A stretch of DNA of 64,000 nt from a virus. The translations under genes were made by a program, and so were the position numbers. Below are positions 44,308 to 64,000 of this stretch, in pieces. The notes under the pieces are model-generated. The model searched no databases, had not been told where the DNA came from, and saw nothing but the letters and a program-made list of their open reading frames with translations. The first letter of the stretch is position 1. Every line of letters begins with the position of its first letter. The stretch lies in the IMG/VR virus record IMGVR_UViG_3300028840_002691, positions 41,095 to 105,094 of that record; one strand, 5' to 3'.

Positions 44308-44465
44308 GAAATAAAGGAGGTTAAGAAAACCGGACACAATGAAGGCTAACACCACGGCATACAGACAAAATCTTAAGAGAGCTCCAGAGTGGTTAATGTT
44401 TCTTGTCCGGTTTCATTGGCTGCCTGGGGCTTTCTTATTTTCTGAGAATGAAAGGAGAGTGGGCT

Positions 44466-45683
44466 ATGGAAAGAAGATTGGCAGTTGTTAGAAAAGGTGA
44501 AGAGGCTGTGATCCCTGTAATTGAGATTCCTAAGAAGCAAGAGTTATGGGCTGTTTCTGATCTTAGGCCAGATGAAAACCAAGCGCCAAGGAAAATGCCC
44601 CCAGAGAAGTTGAAGAGTCTTGGTGAGAGTTTGTTACAGAGACAAAAACACCCACTACAGGTTCTTCCAGATGGGATGATAGTAACAGGTGAGCGTCGTT
44701 GGAGAGCTGCCAAACTGGTCGGGATCAAAAGTTTGTGGTGTGTTGTTCTGGATGACTTACTTCAGTATGAAGGAGAGAAGCTCAAATCTGAGATTCGTTC
44801 TGAACAGGCTAGTGAGAACTGGCATCGTGGTGAAGAAGCTGGCGTTAAGTTGTCTGTTTATTTTGCTGAGATGTTCAAAGCCCAACAGCTTTACTACCGT
44901 ACCCGCACAAACGAAGAGCTGCTGGAGGAGGCTAGAGGTGCTGGTGTCGTACTTTTTTCAAAAAAAGTACGAAGGGGACAAGATGAAACTCGTTGGCTCA
45001 CCAGAATGCGGAAGGAAAATAGCTATTATAGCCTCATAGCCCACAAGTTCAGCATAATGGACAAGAGCGGGAAGCCGATGGCAACTGCTGTGAGGAAGAA
45101 CATTTTGTTCAAGGATAGAACATCTGAGAAGGTGTATTCTAAGGCTGAAGACACATCTGTATCGCAGATTGAGGGAACATTAGGAAGTGAGGATTATTCT
45201 GATTGTCAGCTGAAGCAAATTGCAAAGGTGCAGGATGAGATTTGTTCTGACAGCAAGTTTTATGGTTCTGGTATTATGGTCAGGACTGTCATGCGGGCTA
45301 TAAAGAATGATGAATCTGATGAGGTAATTGAAAAAGTAAAGAAGGAGGTACGGAAGGGCAAGTACAAGAGTTCTGATCTTAACAAGGTTGAAGATCAGGA
45401 TGCTTTGATTGCTGCTGTCAAAGAAGAGGTTGAGGGAAAGAAGAAAGAAGAAACTTTTGATGAGTATTTGAAAAAGGTTTCTAATGCTGCTGATGGGCTT
45501 ATTAACAAGTTGGGCATGCTTCTGGAACAGGTGAAGGAGAGTCCAGAGAGTGCCCAAATTATACTTGAAAACTGGGAGGTGATGGAGTCTCTGCTTTTAT
45601 TGATCTCTACGATGCGTGAGGTGTTTGCGATTTCTGCTGTCAGTCAGAGGATGAAGAAGAACAATGTGAAACTCATGACCTAA
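44466..45683 (+). CDS. ParB N-terminal domain protein
   Basis: P..NQ.PRK, L..S, P..V, GERRWRAA, ENWHR; AGGAG RBS. Confidence 0.8.
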   Translation: MERRLAVVRKGEEAVIPVIEIPKKQELWAVSDLRPDENQAPRKMPPEKLKSLGESLLQRQKHPLQVLPDGMIVTGERRWRAAKLVGIKSLWCVVLDDLLQYEGEKLKSEIRSEQASENWHRGEEAGVKLSVYFAEMFKAQQLYYRTRTNEELLEEARGAGVVLFSKKVRRGQDETRWLTRMRKENSYYSLIAHKFSIMDKSGKPMATAVRKNILFKDRTSEKVYSKAEDTSVSQIEGTLGSEDYSDCQLKQIAKVQDEICSDSKFYGSGIMVRTVMRAIKNDESDEVIEKVKKEVRKGKYKSSDLNKVEDQDALIAAVKEEVEGKKKEETFDEYLKKVSNAADGLINKLGMLLEQVKESPESAQIILENWEVMESLLLLISTMREVFAISAVSQRMKKNNVKLMT

Positions 45684-52225: not shown

Positions 52226-52272
52226 GCCCAGGTGTATCAACCCATTGCGGTGAGATATGCCTGGGCTTTTTT
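52226..52272 (+). terminator. Intrinsic terminator
   Basis: GCCCAGGTGTATC/GATATGCCTGGGC stem plus T6. Confidence 0.8.
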
Positions 52273-52283
52273 GTGGAGTTTTT

Positions 52284-52565
52284 ATGATTAGGACAGAAGA
52301 CCTGGCTAAGAAATTCTTTGAAGTAAGCAAGGAGTTACAGCAGCTTTTTGCTAAGAAAAACTTTGACTATGGCAATGATCAGATCAAAGCTTTTGGTGAC
52401 TTTGGTATTCTTGTTCGTTCTTATGATAAGATTCAGAGGTTGAAAAACATTTATCAAAAGAAGGAGCTATCAGTCCCTGAAGAGACGATTGACGACACGT
52501 GGAGGGATCTTGCTGTTTATGCTATTATGGCTGTCATGTATCGGAACGGGGAGTGGGAGAAGTAG
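52284..52565 (+). CDS. DUF1599 / nucleotide-modification-associated domain 1 protein
   Basis: KKNFDYG, R..DK..RL.N, E...DT..DLAVYAI. Confidence 0.85.
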   Translation: MIRTEDLAKKFFEVSKELQQLFAKKNFDYGNDQIKAFGDFGILVRSYDKIQRLKNIYQKKELSVPEETIDDTWRDLAVYAIMAVMYRNGEWEK

Positions 52566-53906
52566 ATGTGCGGGTTGAACTTCTGTACGATTGATCCTGA
52601 GACTTATATCCCTTTGATGAATGAAAAGATATCTTATAGGGGTATTCGTTCTAATTGGTATGTCTATGATGATCTTGGGTTTGGTCATGTTAGACTCCCA
52701 ATACAAGGCGTCGATGAAAAATACGATCAGCCGTTTGAGTATAAGAACTGGATCATTCTTTATGTTGGAGAGATATTCAACTATAAGAAGATAGACCCGA
52801 CTGCGAATAGTGATATTGAAGTATTGGCCAAGTCTTGGGATCTGTATGGTGAAGGATGCTTTCATCTGTTTGATGGTTTTTGGTCAGTTGTAGTTTATGA
52901 TAAACAGACAGGCGAGACTCATGTCTTTACAGATTTTCTTGCTAAGAAGCCGCTTTATATCCACAAGTACACGAGTTCTGTTTCTTCTGAGATAAAGTCC
53001 CTTTGTCCTTTTAATGGGTATAAGTATTGGCAGGACGAGTACTATTTTTCTTGTGTCAATAAATGGGGCTATTGCCTTAATGAGCATACTTTTATTTCTT
53101 CTGTTCGTAAGATTCCTCCTTGTACTCATCTTGTGATAAAGAACATGAAAGTGGTTTCCGAAAAGAGATACATGGGCATTTCTCCTAGAAAGATTCACCT
53201 AAGAGAAAAGATAGAAACTGCTGTCTATAATAGATTGGTTTCTGATATTCCTATCTCACTTGTATGTTCTGGTGGGTTGGATTCGTCTATTATTTATAAA
53301 TTGGTAGAGAAGAAGACGCATGATTTTACTATCTTTCATATTGATAACAAGGAGGGTGAATATCTTAACTATCTGAAGATTCCTGGTGATATTAATGTTG
53401 TGATGCTTTCGTTGGATCAGTTTGATTTGAATGAAGTGCTTTACTATAATGAGGGACCAGTTGATCTAGGTTCTGTGTTTCCTCAATATGAAATGGCCAG
53501 TGCTATTGCTGGTACCGGGTTGAGCGTCGCTCTTTCTGGTGATGGTGCTGATGAGTTGTTTGGTGGATATACTAGGATATCTGATTATGATTCTCAGTGG
53601 TCTGATGTATTTGAGGAGTTGGTTTATTATCATTTGCCGAGACTTGATAAGTTAATGATGGCTAAGACAATCGAACTGCGCTGTCCTTATCTTTCTGAAC
53701 CTGTGATTGCTGGGGCGCTTTCACTTCCTTATAAAGACAGGATGAAAAAGAAAATCTTGAAAGAAATGTTTTCTGATATTCTTCCAAAACAGATTATTGA
53801 AAGGGACAAGGTAGCTTTGAAGAGTAAAATGGTTTTGGAAGGTGGGTTGGAATGGCGATATTATCTTGTTAACAAATTCAGAGCGGAGGTATTTAATGAA
53901 TATTGA
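52566..53906 (+). CDS. Asparagine synthetase B-like glutamine amidotransferase
   Basis: N-terminal MCG, RG, GHVRL.I, GEIFN, SGGLDSS, SGDGADELFGGY, ELRCPYL. Confidence 0.92.
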   Translation: MCGLNFCTIDPETYIPLMNEKISYRGIRSNWYVYDDLGFGHVRLPIQGVDEKYDQPFEYKNWIILYVGEIFNYKKIDPTANSDIEVLAKSWDLYGEGCFHLFDGFWSVVVYDKQTGETHVFTDFLAKKPLYIHKYTSSVSSEIKSLCPFNGYKYWQDEYYFSCVNKWGYCLNEHTFISSVRKIPPCTHLVIKNMKVVSEKRYMGISPRKIHLREKIETAVYNRLVSDIPISLVCSGGLDSSIIYKLVEKKTHDFTIFHIDNKEGEYLNYLKIPGDINVVMLSLDQFDLNEVLYYNEGPVDLGSVFPQYEMASAIAGTGLSVALSGDGADELFGGYTRISDYDSQWSDVFEELVYYHLPRLDKLMMAKTIELRCPYLSEPVIAGALSLPYKDRMKKKILKEMFSDILPKQIIERDKVALKSKMVLEGGLEWRYYLVNKFRAEVFNEY

Positions 53907-54318
53907 TGACGCTGGGAGTGTTGTGGTACCGGAGCATGAAGATGATATGCTTAGATTGGTTTTTGCTAGACAGAGGGAGCTGATGGAGAAGTATCATCCG
54001 ATTGAGAAAGAAAAGGGATTATTGCAGGATGAAAATATTCCTGTGAATATTGATTCTCATCTTGGACAAGCTAGGTTAAAAGACTTTGCCTGGCGTGTTA
54101 CTGAAGAGATCGGTGAGGCGATGAATTGTTTGAAAAATAAACCTTGGAAACAGACTCAGATGCAGACAGATGTCCATCATTATTTAGAAGAGATTGTTGA
54201 TGCCTTTCATTTCTTTATAGAACTTTGTATTCTTTCGGGGATGTCTGCTGAAGATCTTTTCACTTTTTACTTCAAGAAGAGTGAGGTCAATAAGTTTAGA
54301 CAGCGGTCAAACTACTGA
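53896..54318 (+). CDS. All-alpha (dimeric dUTPase/MazG-like) dNTP pyrophosphatase
   Basis: EEIGEA, KPWK, EEIVDAFHF, K...N..RQ...Y. Confidence 0.85.
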   Translation: MNIDDAGSVVVPEHEDDMLRLVFARQRELMEKYHPIEKEKGLLQDENIPVNIDSHLGQARLKDFAWRVTEEIGEAMNCLKNKPWKQTQMQTDVHHYLEEIVDAFHFFIELCILSGMSAEDLFTFYFKKSEVNKFRQRSNY

Positions 54319-54833
54319 TGCGATCACTGAAACTTATAGAAAGATGTGTTCATAATTGCAGGAGGTGTGGTGATACCTTTGGCAACTCTGCCTGTGGTTT
54401 TGGCAAAGATGATAAGCCTTATGTCTTTTTTATAGGGACGAATCCGTGGGTTAAAGATCATGCTTTTGAGGATGGCAAGGGAATTTCTATTTTGAAAAGA
54501 AATCTGGCTGAATGGAAGTTTGATGATTTTTACTTTTGTAATATAGTAAAATGCCAAATGCCTTGGAATGGGAACCCGAGACAAGAACAGATCGATAACT
54601 GTAGGTCCTATTTGCTTGAACAAATAGAGGTTGTTAGACCAGGAATGCTGGTGTTTTTTGGTAAACAGGTTTCTGAATCGTTTGGTCTTCGATTTCTTCC
54701 TTGGACTTTTGAGAATTTTGGTGAACGCGATGTCCTTATCGTCCCGCACTTTTCATCTATTTTATATGGTGGGACAATTGAGGATATCAAAAGATACTAT
54801 AGAAGATTGAAGGAGGATTTGGATATTGACTAA
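54318..54833 (+). CDS. Family-4-like uracil-DNA glycosylase fold protein with divergent motifs
   Basis: CRRC, FIGTNP, NIVKC, P....I.NC..YL.EQI....P, PHFS. Confidence 0.8.
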   Translation: MRSLKLIERCVHNCRRCGDTFGNSACGFGKDDKPYVFFIGTNPWVKDHAFEDGKGISILKRNLAEWKFDDFYFCNIVKCQMPWNGNPRQEQIDNCRSYLLEQIEVVRPGMLVFFGKQVSESFGLRFLPWTFENFGERDVLIVPHFSSILYGGTIEDIKRYYRRLKEDLDID

Positions 54834-56068
54834 ACCCAGGGCACTTGGTGTTACATGTGGGATTGGAAGTATGTTGATTGGTGCCAGACAAGCTGGGTTT
54901 GATATTGTTGGCAATATTGAGTGGAGAAAATACTACCATACTGGAACGTTTGAATATAATTTCCCTGGTGCTTTTATGGTAAAGGAGCTGTCTGCTCTAT
55001 CGCCAAGGATAATTCGCTCTTTAAGGGGGATTGACTTGGTGATGGGGCATCCCTGACTGTGGTAACTATAGTATTCTTTTATCGAGTGGGGGGCATAACA
55101 AAAAGGAACTGATGGAGAAGAGAAAACATCCCTCGGATATTCCTTTGTTTATCAAACTTGTTTCTATTCTTAAACCCAGATTTTTTGTTATGGATAATCT
55201 TCCAGGAGCCATCTGTGCTGTTGGGCCAGATTTTTGGTCTTCTAATCTTTCTTCTTATGATATTTTTTTTGAGTGGGTTAGCAATTATCATTATGGTAAC
55301 TTACAGATTAGGAGAAACAGGCTGTTTATTATTGGTTGTCTTAGGGGCGAAAGTTTTACTTTTGTTCCTGGGGAGAAAGAATTATTCTTGTCTATGAAAG
55401 AGATCTTATCAGACCTTCTACCAGTTTCTTCGTATGGTAGATTTCCGAATCATAGCAAGTTAGACATGAAAGAGAGAGTTGGTGTTGGAAAGAGGATGAA
55501 TTTTTCTGGTTGTTATGATTATCGTTCTTTTGTGGGTTTTGATACGCTATTGGAAAGTGGTGAATGGTCTGATGTCCGAAGATATTTTTCTGCTGTCCCA
55601 GAAGGACATGTGATGACTTATATAAATAAGGAGGGACGGGTAGCAAGAAGAGCTGGTACTAGTAAACCATATTGGAGTGGTCATTCTCATGTTATTGATG
55701 GATCAAGTCCCAGTATACATCCAAAAAAGAATCTTCCTTTTACGATAAGAGAAAGGGCTCGTATTCAGGGCTGTCCGGATGATTTTGTTTTTATCGGTGA
55801 GAAGCTTAATAGTAAGGGAGAATGGGGTTTTTATAAGAATAGTAATCTAATTAAGCAAACCGGTAAGTTTATGCCTGTCCAATTTTGCAGGTATATCTCT
55901 GAGCAGATTATGGCTTATATGAAGGGTAGAAAATTCAAGTGTTCTGGAAGGCGGTTGATAAAAGAGAATCAATCTATCAGCGAGGCTAAGAAATGGTATT
56001 GTGAAAACGTTGGTTACTCTAATCAAAAACTAGCTTGTAAGTATTGCTGGCTAGATTGTGGGAGGTGA
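54826..56068 (+). CDS. Divergent C5-cytosine methyltransferase-like protein joined by a +1 frameshift at CCC-TGA (55051-55056)
   Basis: Motif I TCGIGS and AGF...IE in ORF 54826-55056; +1 frame gives GHP-DCGNYS and continues into ORF 55112-56068 (MDNL, QIRRNRLFIIG, RERARIQG.PDDF, QTGK.MPV). Confidence 0.85.
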
Positions 56069-56073
56069 GCTAA

Positions 56074-56481
56074 ATGAAAGTAGAGGTTTTGTTCAATGGT
56101 ACTAAGATTACTTATGTTAGAATTGGTGATTTCTTCTATGATCTTCTTTTCTTGCTAGATGATCTTTCACCGTTGGATGCTCTTAGGAGTAACTTTAATT
56201 CTATTTTTGATCTTTTGTCTGAGTTTGGTTCGGTTGCTAATTCTTCTTCTATTGAATCTGCTGATAAAAGATCGATTTCTTCTATGTTGCATCAGGTTAA
56301 GAATCTTCGGGATCTTTTGAAGAAGGATCATGATCGTGAGTATTTAGTTAAGTTGAAATATGATTTGGCTTTGAAGTTGAAAGGGTTAGGATATCTGCCG
56401 GGTTTTAGTACCTGGACACCTATTGAGAAAGGTGCTTGCTGGTTCAATCCAGAAAGGAGAAGAATAACGAATGAGAATTGA
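56074..56481 (+). CDS. Hypothetical protein
   Basis: GGAGGTG RBS; in operon. Confidence 0.65.
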   Translation: MKVEVLFNGTKITYVRIGDFFYDLLFLLDDLSPLDALRSNFNSIFDLLSEFGSVANSSSIESADKRSISSMLHQVKNLRDLLKKDHDREYLVKLKYDLALKLKGLGYLPGFSTWTPIEKGACWFNPERRRITNEN

Positions 56482-57349
56482 GGATGCTAAATTTGAAATA
56501 GTTAACAAAAAATCTGGGAAAAGGTTGCCCAGAGACTATCATTGTTCTTGTTCTTTTTGCAAGGGTGGATATTCTGGAATGTTGATAAGGAGTGATGGTA
56601 GTAAATATAGCCGTCGTGTTCGTTCTTACTATTATGATGAAGGGGAGAGAGTTCATCCAGCAAAAACTCCTCTTCATTTGGCTCGCTATTGTGTACAAAC
56701 TTATACTGAATCGGGGGATTGGGTTTTTGATCCGACTATTGGTGCGGGAACTACTGCAGTAGAAGCTTTAAATTTTGATAGGAATGTTGTTGGGATAGAA
56801 CTTTGTTATTATGATAATGTTTTATTGAATATAAGAAAAAATTGTCGTGATGGTAAAAGATATAAAATCTTTCATGGCGATGCTATCGATTGTGGTAAAT
56901 TTCTAAAGAAAGCGGGGAGAAAGTTTAGATTGATTATTAACAATCCACCTTATTCTGCTGATACTATTGTTCAATGGGGATTTACTGGTAGTGGTAAGGA
57001 GGTAAGATATGAAACAGGTGAATCTGGAAATCTTGCCTTTAAAAGAGAGAATGATGAGTATTATAAATTTATTAGGGATATCTATCAAGAAGCCTGTAAG
57101 CATTTACTTTTTGGGGGGTATTTTGTAGTTGGTGTTAAGGATATGATGAGACAGAAGAAGCCCTATTTACTTCATTTCTATCTTGGAAAAATACTGGAAG
57201 AGTTTTTATCGTTTAAAGAAATGATTCTTCTTCCTCATTATCCCCCGACGTTGTTTATGAATACTTATAGAAAAAGGTATCCAGAGGTTGAGAAGATACC
57301 TTTATATCAAACTATTTTGGTTTTTAGAAAGGAGAAGAATAGCAAATGA
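56471..57349 (+). CDS. N4-C/N6-A amino-methyltransferase
   Basis: HPAKTP, DPTIGAGTT, NPPY. Confidence 0.88.
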   Translation: MRIEDAKFEIVNKKSGKRLPRDYHCSCSFCKGGYSGMLIRSDGSKYSRRVRSYYYDEGERVHPAKTPLHLARYCVQTYTESGDWVFDPTIGAGTTAVEALNFDRNVVGIELCYYDNVLLNIRKNCRDGKRYKIFHGDAIDCGKFLKKAGRKFRLIINNPPYSADTIVQWGFTGSGKEVRYETGESGNLAFKRENDEYYKFIRDIYQEACKHLLFGGYFVVGVKDMMRQKKPYLLHFYLGKILEEFLSFKEMILLPHYPPTLFMNTYRKRYPEVEKIPLYQTILVFRKEKNSK

Positions 57350-58047
57350 GGATTTATAATGATCCTGTAGAGATGGTCAAGGAGGTTGAAAGAGATCTTT
57401 TTGAAATGGGTCTTCGTGTTGATTGTCATACTGTACAGGACAAGAATGTGGAAGGCGACTCGGATTATCAGAACCTTGAACTGTTTGGTTATACTTATCG
57501 ATTGACTTCTTTTACTTCTCAAAAACTTTCTGAGATGATTGCTTATATGAAAGGGAATGAAGAGTGGGCAAAACATGAATTAGTTGACCGTTTGTCGCCG
57601 GAGTATATCAATCCAGGTAAAGCATATAAGAAGTGGGAAAAGGTTTGGAAACCATTTTTAAGAGATGGGACTTTTTCTTATACTTATAACCAAAGGATTA
57701 GGGATCAACTTCCCTGTGTAATTCAAGAACTGAAAAAGAGGCCAAATAGCAGGCAGGCAATTATTACGGTTTATGACAAACATCTTGACATGAATAATTG
57801 GGGTGGGCTTGATCGTGTATGCTGTTCTCTTTACTATCAACTGTTCTATCGATCTGGTAAATTGAATATGATCTATTCTATGAGAAGTTGTGATTTTCTT
57901 ACTCACTTTGTTCATGATGTTTATTTTGCTATTGGTATTCTTAGATATGTGGCTAAGGAGTTGGACTGGGATGTTGGTTTCTTTATTCATTTTCTTGGCT
58001 CATTGCATGCGTTTAGGAAGGATATGGAAGGGAGGGGGATATTTTAA
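57346..58047 (+). CDS. Thymidylate-synthase-family enzyme, dCMP-specific type (hydroxymethylase/methylase-like)
   Basis: SRQA, catalytic C in VCCSLYYQ, MRSCD...HD, GSLH. Confidence 0.88.
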   Translation: MRIYNDPVEMVKEVERDLFEMGLRVDCHTVQDKNVEGDSDYQNLELFGYTYRLTSFTSQKLSEMIAYMKGNEEWAKHELVDRLSPEYINPGKAYKKWEKVWKPFLRDGTFSYTYNQRIRDQLPCVIQELKKRPNSRQAIITVYDKHLDMNNWGGLDRVCCSLYYQLFYRSGKLNMIYSMRSCDFLTHFVHDVYFAIGILRYVAKELDWDVGFFIHFLGSLHAFRKDMEGRGIF

Positions 58048-58072
58048 TCTTATATCTAATTATCCAAAATAG

Positions 58073-58717
58073 ATGAAGAGGAGGCGAGATTTTATGGGAA
58101 ATAGAGAACATTGTCGGTTTGAATTTATCTCTAAAAGTGAGGAGAGAAAGGGGAATAAGAGTAAAAATAAACTGTGGGGTTTTATTTATGCTGTTTGTAT
58201 TTGTAATAAGGGTAGTCGGGTTTTGGAAATTAAGATCGGTAGGACGATTAAGGAGTTGTATCATTATATCTCTTCTAACTATGGAGGTTCTGTTTCTTTA
58301 ATCTATTATCTAATGATTCCTGTTGGTAATGTTGAGATGTGTGAGAAGTGGATAATAAATAGTGAATATATGAAGGAATATCCTGGTTCTACTAATGAAC
58401 GTTTTAATTTATCTGTTATGTGTATTTTACCCCAGATATTTTCTCAGGCTTTTACTTTATTTGGTTGTACAAATGGGATTGACAGAAGTTCTTATTCTGG
58501 GGATCGTTGGGGAAAACAGGGGTTACCGACTCATTCTGAGATTGTGAGTTATATCGTATCTAAGACGGGGGAGTGGCTTACTATTAAGGGTGTTTGTTCT
58601 TTTTTTGGTATTATTAGAAAGAAGAATAAAGATCATGCGTCTAGATATAATACCGTTTCTAGACGTCTTTTGGATATTTGTGGTAAAAACGTTGATGGTA
58701 AATATCTAGTTCCTTAG
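58073..58717 (+). CDS. Hypothetical protein, weak T5orf172/GIY-YIG-like features
   Basis: GFIY...KIGRT...E.....E.F; AT-rich; start uncertain. Confidence 0.4.
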   Translation: MKRRRDFMGNREHCRFEFISKSEERKGNKSKNKLWGFIYAVCICNKGSRVLEIKIGRTIKELYHYISSNYGGSVSLIYYLMIPVGNVEMCEKWIINSEYMKEYPGSTNERFNLSVMCILPQIFSQAFTLFGCTNGIDRSSYSGDRWGKQGLPTHSEIVSYIVSKTGEWLTIKGVCSFFGIIRKKNKDHASRYNTVSRRLLDICGKNVDGKYLVP

Positions 58718-58720
58718 AAG

Positions 58721-59167
58721 ATGATAAATAGAGTATCTCTCGATAAAATCTTTATGGAGACAGCAAAACTATTTGCTGAAAGATCTACGTGCCTTCGGCC
58801 TAAAGAGATGAAGGGTAAGGTCGGTGCCGTAATCGTTCAGGATAATAGAATTGTCTCTACCGGATATACTGGTTCTGCTTCTGGTGATTCCCATTGTATT
58901 GATGTTGGTTGTGAGATTGATTCTAATACCGGAGGTTGTATAAGAACATTGCATTCAGAGACCAATGCTATAGCTTTTGCTGCTAGGAGTGGTATCAAGT
59001 TAGAGAATGCTGAGATGTTTGTTACTTTAAGTCCGTGTCTGGACTGTGCTAAGTTACTCGTTGCTTGTGGATTCAAAAGGGTTGTTTACTTGATAGAGTA
59101 CAGGGATGAAAGAGGAATCAAATATCTGAAAGATCATGGTGTGATTTGTGAGCGATATAGAGACTGA
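58721..59167 (+). CDS. dCMP deaminase
   Basis: RSTC, VGAVIV, HSE.NA, LSPCLDC. Confidence 0.92.
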   Translation: MINRVSLDKIFMETAKLFAERSTCLRPKEMKGKVGAVIVQDNRIVSTGYTGSASGDSHCIDVGCEIDSNTGGCIRTLHSETNAIAFAARSGIKLENAEMFVTLSPCLDCAKLLVACGFKRVVYLIEYRDERGIKYLKDHGVICERYRD

Positions 59168-61625
59168 TAAGAATTGTGGTAAATGCGGACAGTATAGAAA
59201 GGTAAGAAGTCCTAATATCCCTTGTGATGGTTATGGGAAGAAAGGTGTTCTTGCTGTTGGACAAAGTCCCGGAGTTGTTGAAGATAGAAAAGGAGAAAAT
59301 TTTGTTGGCAGCAGTGGCGATCTTGTTACTGATGTCATGCGTACTTATGGATTGGAGTTTAAACGAGATTTCTATGTTGCCAATGCTTTTAGGTGTAAGC
59401 CTTCTGGTAAGAACTTTTTGATGTATCAGAAGTGCTGTCACCATAGACTTGTTGGTGATATTAAAAGATTGAAACCGTGGTTGATTGTTGCTTTTGGAAA
59501 GGAGGCTATACAATCTGTCTTTGGGATCTTTCATCCGATTACTACTAAACAGTTTCAAGATCTTTTGATTCCACGTGTTGAGTATGGTTGCTGGGTATAT
59601 TGTACTTATCATCCTGCTTGGGTGATCAGGAATGAAAGGGACAACAAAGATCTTTTCATTGATGCTGTTGGCCGTATAGCAGAGTTGATTGAGGATTCGG
59701 AGGAAGAGGGGCTTGAGTTCGAGTGGAGGCATAGGACTGATTGGCAGCTTGATAATGTGGAGACTGTTACTGATTTTGACAAAGCCGTTGAATATCTGAG
59801 ATCGTTAAGGCAGGTTGAGAAGTTTGCTTTTGACTGGGAGAACTATCCATTAAGGCCTTTTTCAAATGACTCCAGAGTGTTATGTGTTGGTCTTGCTGTT
59901 GATGGTGATCATGGTAAGTGTATCCCACTGGATAAGATCCCTGTACCTAAGAGGGAAGTTTATTGGAGCCCACGGCAAAGAAGGATAATTGGACAAGAAC
60001 TGAAGGAGACTTTACAGACAGAAGGACCATTAAAGATAGCTCATAATATACAGCATGAAATGTTGTGGACAAAGTTCATCGGAGCTGAATTGGCGAGACC
60101 GTGGACTTGTACTATGGTCCGGCAGCATTTAAGATGGGAAAAGTCCGGTGCTGGAAAGAATGGTTGGTACGGGCCGAAGTCGTTAAAGTTCCAGATGTTT
60201 GCTAGGCGTGGTTTGTGGCCTTATGATGAACATTTGAAACCTCCCAATATGAACTATGGGCTACTTAATGACAAGGATTTGTTTGACTATAATGCTTGTG
60301 ATGCTAAGTTCACTTACTGGCTTTATGATGAACAAGAACGAGAGAATTATCGTGGTATCGGCGTTGCTGAGAGAATACACATTGAATACGGCTGTAAAGC
60401 CATGGCCGAGATGACTTGGAATGGCGTCGAAGTTGATAAGAAAGTTGTTTCTTCTTTGTCTGGCGAATGGCAGGATCAGTTAAAAGAAGTTAAGAGTGAA
60501 CTGATCAATTGTTCTTATGGGAGGAAATGGAAGAAGAAATATAAAACAGAGATTGATCTGAATAGTGGCAAACAGGTTGGTGAAATGCTTTTTGAGATAC
60601 AGAAGCTTCCTGGAGGTAAGAAAACGCCGAAGAGTGGACAATGGAAAACTACTGAGGATATCATTCAAGATCTCATTAAGAAAGGATATGAATGGCCTAA
60701 GAACTGGTTGAGATATAAGAAACTTGAAAAGGCTGTCGGTACTTTTCTTAAAGGATATCTTGAAGATCAACTTCATGATGATGGTAAACTTCATCCTTCG
60801 TTTGGTCTTGGAGTTGCTGAGACATATCGGGGTCAATCTGATAGTCCTAATATGCAGAATTTCCCAAATAGGGAAGCACTGGTTGGAAGGGAGATCAGGA
60901 AGGCTATCTATGCTCCTAGAGGGTGGGAGATTGGCGAGTTTGATTATAGTCAACATGAGGTTCGTGTGCTTGCAATGTTATCTAAGGATAAAGTTCTTAT
61001 TGATAATATTGTAAGTGGGCATGATTTTCATGAGGACTATGCTGCCAAGATAATGGAGAAACCGGCTAGTAAGTTAACTACGAGAGAAAGGGATGAAGGG
61101 GGTAAAAGGATTTTTGTTTTTCCTATTTTCTATGGTTCTGGTTGGAGGAGTATCTATGAGGACTTGGTTGCTAACGGTTTTAAAGTAAGGGAAAAAAATG
61201 TAAAGCATGTTTACTATGCTTTTAAAGAGAAGTATTCGGGGGTGACAGCATTTCAAAAGAAGCTTGCTGAGTTCTTTAGAGATAATGCTTATGTTGAAAC
61301 ACCTTTGGGATATAGACGGAGGGAACCAATGACTTATACGGCTTTGGTTAATTTTCCCGTCCAGAATGTTGCCTTTGCTTTACTTCTTTATGCTGCTGCC
61401 AAGACGATGGATGCTATTAAGGATCAGGAAATGAAGGCAAAGGGGATATTTCAAATACATGATTCGGCTGGATTTATTTATCCTAAAAATGAAAGACGGC
61501 AGCTTTTTGATCTTGTTCTTGATAATTTTTTGGAGTTCCCCTGGAAGTTTACGGAAACTGTACCACTTAAGGTCGGTGCTAAAGTTGGGAAGAATTGGCT
61601 CGAGATGAGGAAAATAAATTTATGA
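59148..61625 (+). CDS. Family A DNA polymerase with N-terminal UDG-like domain and 3'-5' exonuclease
   Basis: CGKC, GQSPG..ED..G..FVG.SG, YHPA; FDWE, HN, YNACDA; PNMQN.P, DYSQHEVR, K...VFP.FYG, NFPVQ, QIHDS. Confidence 0.93.
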   Translation: MSDIETDKNCGKCGQYRKVRSPNIPCDGYGKKGVLAVGQSPGVVEDRKGENFVGSSGDLVTDVMRTYGLEFKRDFYVANAFRCKPSGKNFLMYQKCCHHRLVGDIKRLKPWLIVAFGKEAIQSVFGIFHPITTKQFQDLLIPRVEYGCWVYCTYHPAWVIRNERDNKDLFIDAVGRIAELIEDSEEEGLEFEWRHRTDWQLDNVETVTDFDKAVEYLRSLRQVEKFAFDWENYPLRPFSNDSRVLCVGLAVDGDHGKCIPLDKIPVPKREVYWSPRQRRIIGQELKETLQTEGPLKIAHNIQHEMLWTKFIGAELARPWTCTMVRQHLRWEKSGAGKNGWYGPKSLKFQMFARRGLWPYDEHLKPPNMNYGLLNDKDLFDYNACDAKFTYWLYDEQERENYRGIGVAERIHIEYGCKAMAEMTWNGVEVDKKVVSSLSGEWQDQLKEVKSELINCSYGRKWKKKYKTEIDLNSGKQVGEMLFEIQKLPGGKKTPKSGQWKTTEDIIQDLIKKGYEWPKNWLRYKKLEKAVGTFLKGYLEDQLHDDGKLHPSFGLGVAETYRGQSDSPNMQNFPNREALVGREIRKAIYAPRGWEIGEFDYSQHEVRVLAMLSKDKVLIDNIVSGHDFHEDYAAKIMEKPASKLTTRERDEGGKRIFVFPIFYGSGWRSIYEDLVANGFKVREKNVKHVYYAFKEKYSGVTAFQKKLAEFFRDNAYVETPLGYRRREPMTYTALVNFPVQNVAFALLLYAAAKTMDAIKDQEMKAKGIFQIHDSAGFIYPKNERRQLFDLVLDNFLEFPWKFTETVPLKVGAKVGKNWLEMRKINL

Positions 61626-63449: not shown

Positions 63450-64000
63450 ATGGCGGACCCATCAAAGATAAAGCCCACCCGCAAGCCCAGGCGGATGTTG
63501 GAGCCTGGACCCAGTGACGTGCAGCACTTTCTGAGCACGGGCTCCACTCTGCTGGACCTCTGTATCAGCGGGCTTGTAGATCCCAGTGGCCGAGGAGGGA
63601 TCCCCGTGGGCAGGTACACAGAGATATTCGGTCCGGAGGCCAGCGGTAAGAGCTACATCAGTGGTGAGTTACTAAGGAGTGCGCAGGACTTGGGGTGGGA
63701 GCGGCACCTGGTGGACACAGAGAGGAGCTTTGAGTTCGACAGGGCTGTTGATACTTTTGATCTTGAAGTTGATGACGGTAAGTTTCATTACTATCCAAGT
63801 GAAAGGGAAGCAGACATTGATGCCGTTGAAGACATTATCGGTGTGTATAAGGTTGGCACAAGTAGGGTTGCTAGGAAGGGTTTGATAAATAAGATTGCAG
63901 AAAGGATGGATGGTAAGAATCCTGGTGTAGCTATTGTTGATAGTATTGCGGCACTTACTAGCAGGATGGAGAAGGACGGTTCTGACAAGCGTGGGCAGAG
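63450..64000 (+). CDS. RecA/UvsX-like recombinase (truncated by window end; absent from ORF track)
   Basis: STGSTLLD..I.G....GGIPVGRYTEIFGPEASGKS, DTE, IVDSIAAL. Confidence 0.92.
   Translation, partial: MADPSKIKPTRKPRRMLEPGPSDVQHFLSTGSTLLDLCISGLVDPSGRGGIPVGRYTEIFGPEASGKSYISGELLRSAQDLGWERHLVDTERSFEFDRAVDTFDLEVDDGKFHYYPSEREADIDAVEDIIGVYKVGTSRVARKGLINKIAERMDGKNPGVAIVDSIAALTSRMEKDGSDKRGQ

Follow-up and report, generated by a model that had tools for sequence, protein, structure and literature searches.

What base does an uncultured phage make when it encodes, in a single operon, a thymidylate synthase (TS) homologue of cytosine type and an enzyme resembling asparagine synthetase? The question is raised by a virus record of 105,094 bp (IMG/VR record IMGVR_UViG_3300028840_002691, rated 93% complete), of which bases 41095-105094 were analysed. 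This stretch of 64,000 nucleotides is called the window hereafter, and positions refer to it unless the genome is named. The operon occupies positions 52257-61625 on the + strand. As judged from homology, the parts of a T4-like pathway for the replacement of deoxycytidine (dC) are present, and the predicted TS homologue is cytosine-type. We give a slightly better than even chance to the view that the operon encodes a T4-type, pre-replicative cytosine-replacement pathway with an extra tailoring step carried out by the AsnB-like enzyme.

The argument starts with the TS homologue (57346-58047; PF00303, 2e-14), examined in an alignment of E. coli ThyA, T4 gp42 and 28 members of its clade, numbered as in E. 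coli ThyA. The clade retains the catalytic Cys146 together with Arg166, Ser167 (Ala in two members), Asp169, Tyr94 and His207. At the position of ThyA Asn177, all 28 members have Asp, a marker of cytosine (deoxycytidine monophosphate, dCMP) enzymes; with the catalytic Cys kept, this bears out the proposal, made in a sequence-only reading of the operon, of a dCMP-type TS homologue. Arg at the position of ThyA Leu143 is equally invariant (28/28), and further clade residues are Ser/Thr147, His or Phe at 173, Gln127 and Phe209. The homologue at 57346-58047 itself has Cys146, Asp177, Arg143, Ser/Thr147, His173, Gln127 and Phe209. Residues 143, 147, 173 and 177 are among the twelve within 6 Å of C5, and the identity of residue 143 tracks the product; in this family, Leu143 marks methyl, Asp/Glu143 hydroxymethyl and D169N 5-hydroxyl products (Lee 2026, PMC13326640). 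Because the clade carries Arg143 rather than Leu or Asp/Glu, and no D169N, its sequences place it outside the three known classes (methyl, hydroxymethyl and 5-hydroxyl), as a predicted fourth active-site class.

An AlphaFold-type model of the TS homologue (pLDDT 92.9) has as its best fold neighbours the dCMP hydroxylase of phage HY126, MilA, ThyA and T4 dCMP hydroxymethylase (dCH); at the level of the model, its top structural neighbours are cytosine-nucleotide C5 modifiers. PDB entries 9iqu and 9iqc were considered as a possible dCMP methylase and ruled out, being the flavin-dependent dCMP 5-hydroxylase of HY126, with another active-site signature. Relatives of this TS family are encoded in more than 585 viral contigs, and the clade appears widespread. 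The nearest cultured relatives are found in the Clostridium perfringens phages CPD4, CP3 and CPAS-15 (37.7% identity). These phages have the TS clade and lack the AsnB-like gene; the CPD4 enzyme has the same residues at 127, 143, 147, 173 and 177 and keeps Tyr at 209.

Other parts of a replacement pathway stand in the same operon. An all-alpha (dimeric dUTPase/MazG-like) deoxynucleoside triphosphate (dNTP) pyrophosphatase is encoded at 53896-54318 (PF08761, dUTPase_2, 1.6e-10; phrog_12184, 1.4e-37). Its open reading frame (ORF) opens at GTG 53842 (53842-54318), and ATG 53896, preceded by GGAGG, is probably the start. A ComEB-like dCMP deaminase follows the TS homologue at 58721-59167 (PF00383, 1.2e-22; TIGR02571, 3.6e-37). 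Pyrophosphatase, TS homologue and deaminase are thus all present as homologues, and the T4-like logic that had been read into the pairing of the first two holds. In such a pathway, the pyrophosphatase and the deaminase would deplete the canonical dC nucleotides while supplying dCMP and deoxyuridine monophosphate (dUMP), and the TS homologue would add to dCMP a C5 substituent other than methyl, hydroxymethyl or hydroxyl. That the substituent would differ is suggested by the invariant Arg143, against Leu, Asp/Glu or D169N in the known classes. A dedicated family-A polymerase is encoded at the downstream end of the operon, at 59148-61625 (PF00476, 2.8e-62), where a polymerase domain and a 3'-5' exonuclease (PF01612, 2e-04) follow an N-terminal domain resembling uracil-DNA glycosylase (UDG; PF03167, 5.6e-18).

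The AsnB-like gene (52566-53906) encodes a compact protein of 446 amino acids (aa) predicted to be a glutamine amidotransferase and PP-loop adenylating enzyme (Asn_synthase, 8.7e-34, plus GATase_6/7). The N-terminus MCGL (Cys2), the PP-loop SGGLDSS and a Lys aligned with AsnB K449 are retained. Its AlphaFold model (pLDDT 94.5) is closest to E. coli AsnB and human ASNS, then to TsnB9, beta-lactam synthetase and carbapenam synthetase; AsnB, TsnB9 and the two synthetases all adenylate carboxylates. The simplest alternative would be ordinary auxiliary metabolism, that is, an asparagine synthetase that raises the host asparagine supply and is merely located among nucleotide genes. AsnB and ASNS are indeed the best matches in sequence and in fold, and the protein has preserved both the glutaminase Cys and the PP-loop. 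However, the protein misses the NCBIfam equivalog cut-off, scoring 213.8 against 267.1 for TIGR01536, and likewise 150.6 against 499 for PRK09431. Across the whole family, E348 is replaced by Asp, the Arg of TTIRAS by Gly and D384 by His, positions that we take to be those of beta-aspartyl-AMP formation in AsnB. Members of the family, about 450 aa long and 35-60% identical, are encoded in 436 IMG/VR contigs and are seen among many metagenome proteins, and no relative above 25% identity was found in cultured phages, nor above 33% in cellular genomes (one per species, 185,579 species). By these searches the family is virus-only, which also speaks against a role in asparagine supply, as does the presence of the TS clade in every complete AsnB-carrying genome. 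The sequences thus support an enzyme that is not a normal asparagine synthetase, and we hold the asparagine-supply explanation to be very improbable. The sequence-only reading had the enzyme act on a nucleotide or its side chain rather than on aspartate. The second half of this claim is supported by the lost aspartate-site residues, the score below the AsnB cut-off and the linkage to the TS gene; a nucleotide substrate is what we infer beyond that.

The linkage itself comes from gene neighbourhoods. Around the AsnB-like gene, 80 IMG/VR loci were analysed, with ORFs called and clustered anew; the locus sets comprised 36 non-T4-like and 43 T4-like AsnB-like loci (the latter with a gp23 capsid gene nearby), and a separate 80 loci were chosen for the TS clade. 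In the 36 non-T4-like loci the conserved order is a thymidylate-kinase-like P-loop gene or DUF1599/DUF6378, the AsnB-like gene, dUTPase_2 or a MazG-like gene, a methyltransferase, TS and dCMP deaminase, sometimes followed by PolA. TS lies at most 10 kb from the AsnB-like gene in 31 of them, and the TS clade is present in all 14 AsnB-carrying viral records that are at least 90% complete. Dozens of unrelated viral contigs show this set of genes grouped with the AsnB-like gene, a linkage far beyond chance; the conserved co-occurrence that had been put forward as a check on the pathway is found. Seen from the other side, the 80 TS-clade loci carry the pyrophosphatase in 67 cases, the deaminase in 52, the kinase in 39, a special C5-methyltransferase in 20 and the AsnB-like gene in 15. 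So few of these loci (15/80) have the AsnB-like gene that it must be an optional add-on for tailoring, laid over a cytosine-replacement set of wide occurrence.

The slot 5' of the AsnB-like gene is informative for the substrate. Here it holds a gene for a small helical DUF1599/Nmad1 protein (52257-52565; PF07659, 1.4e-06; phrog_1485, 1.7e-18), and in relatives DUF1599, DUF6378 or a P-loop kinase. In 47 of 79 loci, the AsnB-like gene is directly preceded by the thymidylate-kinase-like gene (phrog_761, 6.9e-17). Because this kinase gene overlaps the AsnB-like gene in relatives, a mononucleotide is favoured over DNA as the substrate of the AsnB-like enzyme. In the 43 T4-like loci, the kinase and AsnB-like pair sits among genes of no known family. 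The same divergent TS is encoded elsewhere in the genome in the two T4-like jumbo phages with complete genomes and in one more record (63% complete), and the two of these three records that were checked also have a normal ThyA; with such a ThyA at hand, the divergent TS would not be the thymidylate source of T4-like jumbo phages. In some 42 T4-like contigs the pair lies beside the capsid gene and is followed by the conserved clusters c4, c5, c20, c6, c7, c9 and c10, for which no Pfam, PHROG or profile match was obtained. Profile-profile comparison of the T4-like flanking genes (c4, c5, c20, c22 and others) with TS, deaminase, pyrophosphatase and DUF1599 revealed no relation, the only link being that of two kinase clusters to each other; these flanking genes also had no match in Pfam or PHROGs.

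How, then, could an AsnB-like enzyme act on a C5-modified cytosine nucleotide? It would adenylate the C5 substituent and exchange the activated oxygen for ammonia derived from glutamine, so that the C5 side chain of the cytosine would end in an amide or, with lower probability, in an amine. All AsnB-fold enzymes characterised to date adenylate carboxylates, and by analogy the most likely step is the conversion of a carboxylate into a carboxamide. This same uniformity counts against another explanation, in which the ring itself would be aminated: the AsnB-like enzyme would adenylate the ring carbonyl of thymidine monophosphate (dTMP), of a 5-substituted dUMP or of dUMP and aminate it to the corresponding cytosine nucleotide, in the way that GMP synthetase acts on xanthosine monophosphate. 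The PP-loop enzymes GuaA, TilS and ThiI do adenylate ring carbonyls, and a dCMP deaminase and a thymidylate-kinase-like kinase belong to the module. Yet the TS homologue is already of cytosine type, so no U-to-C step is needed, and amination would enter a futile cycle with the deaminase. We judge ring amination improbable.

A more serious competitor is built on the gene at 54826-56068, a C5-methyltransferase-like gene of a 'HP[D/E]CG ... QxGK' family. The sequence-only reading had left it the part of a bystander; this does not stand, the family being special and a second candidate partner of the AsnB-like enzyme. Its motif IV is HP[D/E]CG (HPDCG here), its motif X is QxGK, and Lys occupies the position of HhaI N304 (the motif-X Asn) in 22 of 22 members, where CmoX has a carboxylate-binding Arg. 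The same Asn-to-Lys change lets the engineered M.MpeI N374K accept carboxy-S-adenosylmethionine (carboxy-SAM) (PMC12783734). In Synechococcus phage S-B43, CmoA makes carboxy-SAM, CmoX (SPPC, Arg at HhaI N304) makes 5-carboxymethylcytosine, and CmoY, an AsnB homologue, ligates glycine to 5-carboxymethylcytosine in DNA; another ligase cluster, adjoining CmoX and equipped with a domain that hydrolyses glutamine, was noted and could not be assayed (Yang 2025, PMC12783734). Accordingly, an AsnB-type ligase acting on a cytosine C5 handle is already a published idea (PMC12783734).

By this precedent, a methyltransferase-like enzyme would add a carboxyl-bearing group to DNA (for example carboxymethyl from host carboxy-SAM) and the AsnB-like enzyme would amidate it to 5-carbamoylmethylcytosine, while TS, pyrophosphatase and deaminase would form a separate pathway. 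That CmoY performs such a reaction on DNA, that a glutamine-dependent ligase cluster stands beside CmoX (PMC12783734) and that the position of the motif-X Asn is Lys throughout the family, Arg in CmoX and Lys in M.MpeI N374K all favour it. So do the glutamine-type ligase cluster of Streptomyces phage TurkishDelight, whose ligase is only about 22.5% identical to the AsnB-like protein, and the position of the methyltransferase, at most three genes from the AsnB-like gene in 21 of the 36 non-T4-like loci. Among TS loci, moreover, the methyltransferase is enriched where the AsnB-like gene is present (10/15 with it, 10/65 without).

Several observations oppose this route. Motif IV is HP[D/E]CG instead of SPPC, and the published definition of CmoX does not extend, by sequence, to the family found here, its Lys being analogous in charge and position. 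No match to CmoA (TIGR00740) was obtained in this genome, and none above cut-off in 36 relatives, including 14/14 complete ones; carboxy-SAM could be supplied by host CmoA. The published count is 4257 CmoA sequences across contigs of 5615 CmoX sequences (Yang 2025, PMC12783734). In the window, the methyltransferase gene is frameshifted: it is split into two ORFs (PF00145 positions 7-67 and 94-322) by a 1-nt (+1) shift at 55050-55060, exactly at the catalytic Cys motif, and a +1 shift at CCC-TGA-C is required to read GHP-DCGNYS. Both pieces match the family profile, and 22 of 22 relatives are intact at the shift site; the gene here could have been misassembled, could be a pseudogene or could be read by programmed frameshifting. 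Stops seen inside four related methyltransferase matches proved to be nothing but reading through the terminal stop. In relatives, moreover, the overlap of the kinase gene with the AsnB-like gene suggests a nucleotide rather than DNA as substrate. Finally, because four complete AsnB-carrying genomes have no member of the C5-methyltransferase family, the universal partner of the AsnB-like enzyme is the TS homologue and not the methyltransferase. We regard the DNA-level route as unlikely and, like ring amination and asparagine supply, rank it lower than T4-type replacement followed by tailoring.

The T4-type replacement with tailoring has a precedent in CmoY, an AsnB homologue that amidates a carboxyl handle on phage cytosine. 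In a narrower version, the Arg143 TS would put a carboxylate-bearing C5 group on dCMP and the AsnB-like enzyme would amidate it, yielding an undescribed base, and on DNA a carboxyl handle of a related kind would come from the Lys-type methyltransferase. The carboxylate might arise by direct carboxylation of the C5 carbanion or by capture of an exocyclic methylene by an amino acid; candidate bases are 5-carboxamido-dC and an amidated aminoacyl-methyl-dC. Arg143 and the motif-X Lys, cationic gains in both C5-functionalising enzymes, fit the installation of an anionic group, though circumstantially. We put this version forward tentatively, as clearly less probable than the broader reading from which it derives.

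Several points weigh against replacement with tailoring. The support consists of gene sequences, gene neighbourhoods and structural models, the product being a prediction, and the co-occurrence counts are drawn from related phages and hence do not represent independent events. With the AsnB-like gene in 15 of the 80 TS-clade loci, the TS product has to function without the AsnB-like step. The glutaminase oxyanion residue Asn74 is Val in this protein; it is Asn in some relatives and varies across the family. No dedicated kinase was found in this genome with kinase profiles built from relatives. A C5-methyltransferase-like gene lies beside a pathway that would already fill C5. To our knowledge, there is no precedent for the addition of a group with a carboxylate by an enzyme of the TS fold.

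The operon holds further genes, called by Pfam and PHROGs with NCBIfam equivalog and cut-off checks; all nine genes of the tightly coupled operon described from the sequence are matched by Pfam or PHROGs. A family-4-like UDG homologue (54318-54833; PF03167, 1.1e-13; NF040953, 1.5e-15, far under its cut-off) has motifs atypical for family 4, GTNPW and HFS; those of the UDG-like domain fused to PolA (59148-59750) are also atypical (GQSPG and HPA). An N6/N4 amino-methyltransferase with an NPPY motif is encoded at 56471-57349 (PF01555, 1.6e-18); some relatives have it as a gene of its own, others as a fusion with the C5-methyltransferase-like gene. Two ORFs, absent from the sequence-only reading, are without Pfam, PHROG or NCBIfam matches. 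One, of 135 aa (56074-56481), has tblastn matches in only 2 of 81 related loci. The other, of 214 aa (58073-58717), may be an inserted gene, as no related locus (0/81) matches it by tblastn. All genes are co-directional, with ends that abut or overlap by 1-20 nt and a widest gap of 25 nt. The operon is AT-richer than the structural genes (GC content 0.36-0.39 vs. 0.45-0.56) and than the remainder of the genome, and GC skew on the coding strand is strong and positive (+0.26 to +0.37) over positions 42000-64000. Scans for promoters and terminators gave no signal over chance level.

The two ends of the record have about 18 nt in common (TGACAAGCGTGGGCAGAG), which indicates a circular or terminally redundant genome. 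The last ORF of the window, RecA-like, crosses this junction (window 63450-63998 plus genome 1-568). Upstream of the operon, a ParB_N-domain protein is encoded at 44403-45683. Dependence on ParB is reported for one subclass of phage T-dioxygenases. ParBc proteins are frequent companions of CmoX-type enzymes (Yang 2025, PMC12783734).

Outside the window, a nonulosonate/sulfated-glycan cluster of about 29 kb (genome 8.4-37 kb) encodes NeuB, two cytidylyltransferases (CMP-sugar synthetases), three epimerases, DegT, WbqC and a PIG-L deacetylase, as well as GT2, GT4 and GT28-like glycosyltransferases and three sulfotransferases. As a source of DNA sugars this cluster was set aside: it is more than 10 kb from the operon and outside the conserved module, and no glycosyltransferase is among the annotated recurrent neighbour families. 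It had been remarked that unrecognised glycosyltransferase or kinase genes could lie outside the window; glycosyltransferases do, whereas a kinase of the relatives' kind is absent from the genome. Also outside the window, a PurZ-like adenylosuccinate-synthetase homologue (genome 37912-38946) has GSEGKG in place of the GDEGKG of PurA. It scores 255 bits with NF038379, below the PurZ cut-off of 300, and in the PDB it matches best a PurA-like enzyme (7vf6), PurA of archaea and PurZ of phages. Adenine may thus be a further base that this phage alters.

Whether restriction, CRISPR and other defences succeed against a phage is decided by the modified bases of its DNA, and such modifications are a source of tools, among them 5-hydroxymethylcytosine (5hmC) chemistry and the Z base. 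A literature search found neither the AsnB-like/TS pairing nor the Arg143 clade described, and no relevant paper on DUF1599 or on aminomethyl- or carbamoyl-cytosine. The suggestion that the chemistry may be new is narrowed by CmoY, already known to amidate 5-carboxymethylcytosine in phage DNA. What the present analysis offers is a predicted fourth active-site class of cytosine-type TS homologue (Arg143), a virus-only AsnB-fold amidotransferase always found alongside it, and a C5-methyltransferase family with the Asn-to-Lys change that let an engineered enzyme accept carboxy-SAM. The cultured phages CPD4, CP3 and CPAS-15, with the TS clade and without the amidotransferase, give immediate access to the first step. 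If a TS that installs a carboxylate were confirmed, the TS fold would gain a new chemistry, and CmoX and CmoY would be joined by a second route to a carboxyl handle, one that operates on nucleotides.

Among known systems, the T4 pathway from dC to 5-hydroxymethyl-dC (gp56 dCTPase/dUTPase, gp42 dCMP hydroxymethylase, gp1 deoxynucleoside monophosphate (dNMP) kinase and Cd dCMP deaminase) follows the same scheme with homologous components. Both have a pyrophosphatase of the all-alpha kind, Cys146 and Asp177 in a TS-fold enzyme, a dCMP deaminase and a phage polymerase, and relatives of this phage add a dNMP-kinase-like gene. In contrast with gp42, the TS here has Arg instead of Asp/Glu at 143 and also differs at 127, 173 and 209; this genome lacks the kinase, no DNA glucosyltransferase was recognised in the operon, and the AsnB-like amidotransferase has no T4 counterpart. 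The best PDB matches of the TS homologue, in sequence and fold, are the flavin-dependent 5-hydroxy-dCMP synthases (RB69 gp48, DLP3 gp80 and HY126 AfhB; PDB 9iqc/9iqu; PMC13326640), which are likewise short TS homologues (about 234 aa) with Asp177 and dCMP as substrate. However, D169N is absent here, Asp169 being present in all clade members, and residue 143 is Arg rather than Glu. With E. coli AsnB and human ASNS, the AsnB-like protein has in common the two-domain fold, the N-terminal nucleophile (Ntn) Cys, the PP-loop and the Lys aligned with K449. It differs from them in being about 100 residues shorter, under the family cut-off, virus-only and nucleotide-linked, with Asp for E348, Gly for the Arg of TTIRAS, His for D384 and a variable Asn74. 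Finally, the CmoA/CmoX/CmoY system resembles this operon in an AsnB-homologous ligase next to a C5-methyltransferase homologue with a cationic residue at the HhaI N304 position, in predicted carboxylate-to-amide chemistry on cytosine C5, and in a ParB-domain gene nearby. The two are set apart by the lack of CmoA here, by HP[D/E]CG vs. SPPC at motif IV, by Lys vs. Arg as the cationic residue and by the universal partner of the AsnB-like enzyme here, which is the TS homologue and not the methyltransferase.

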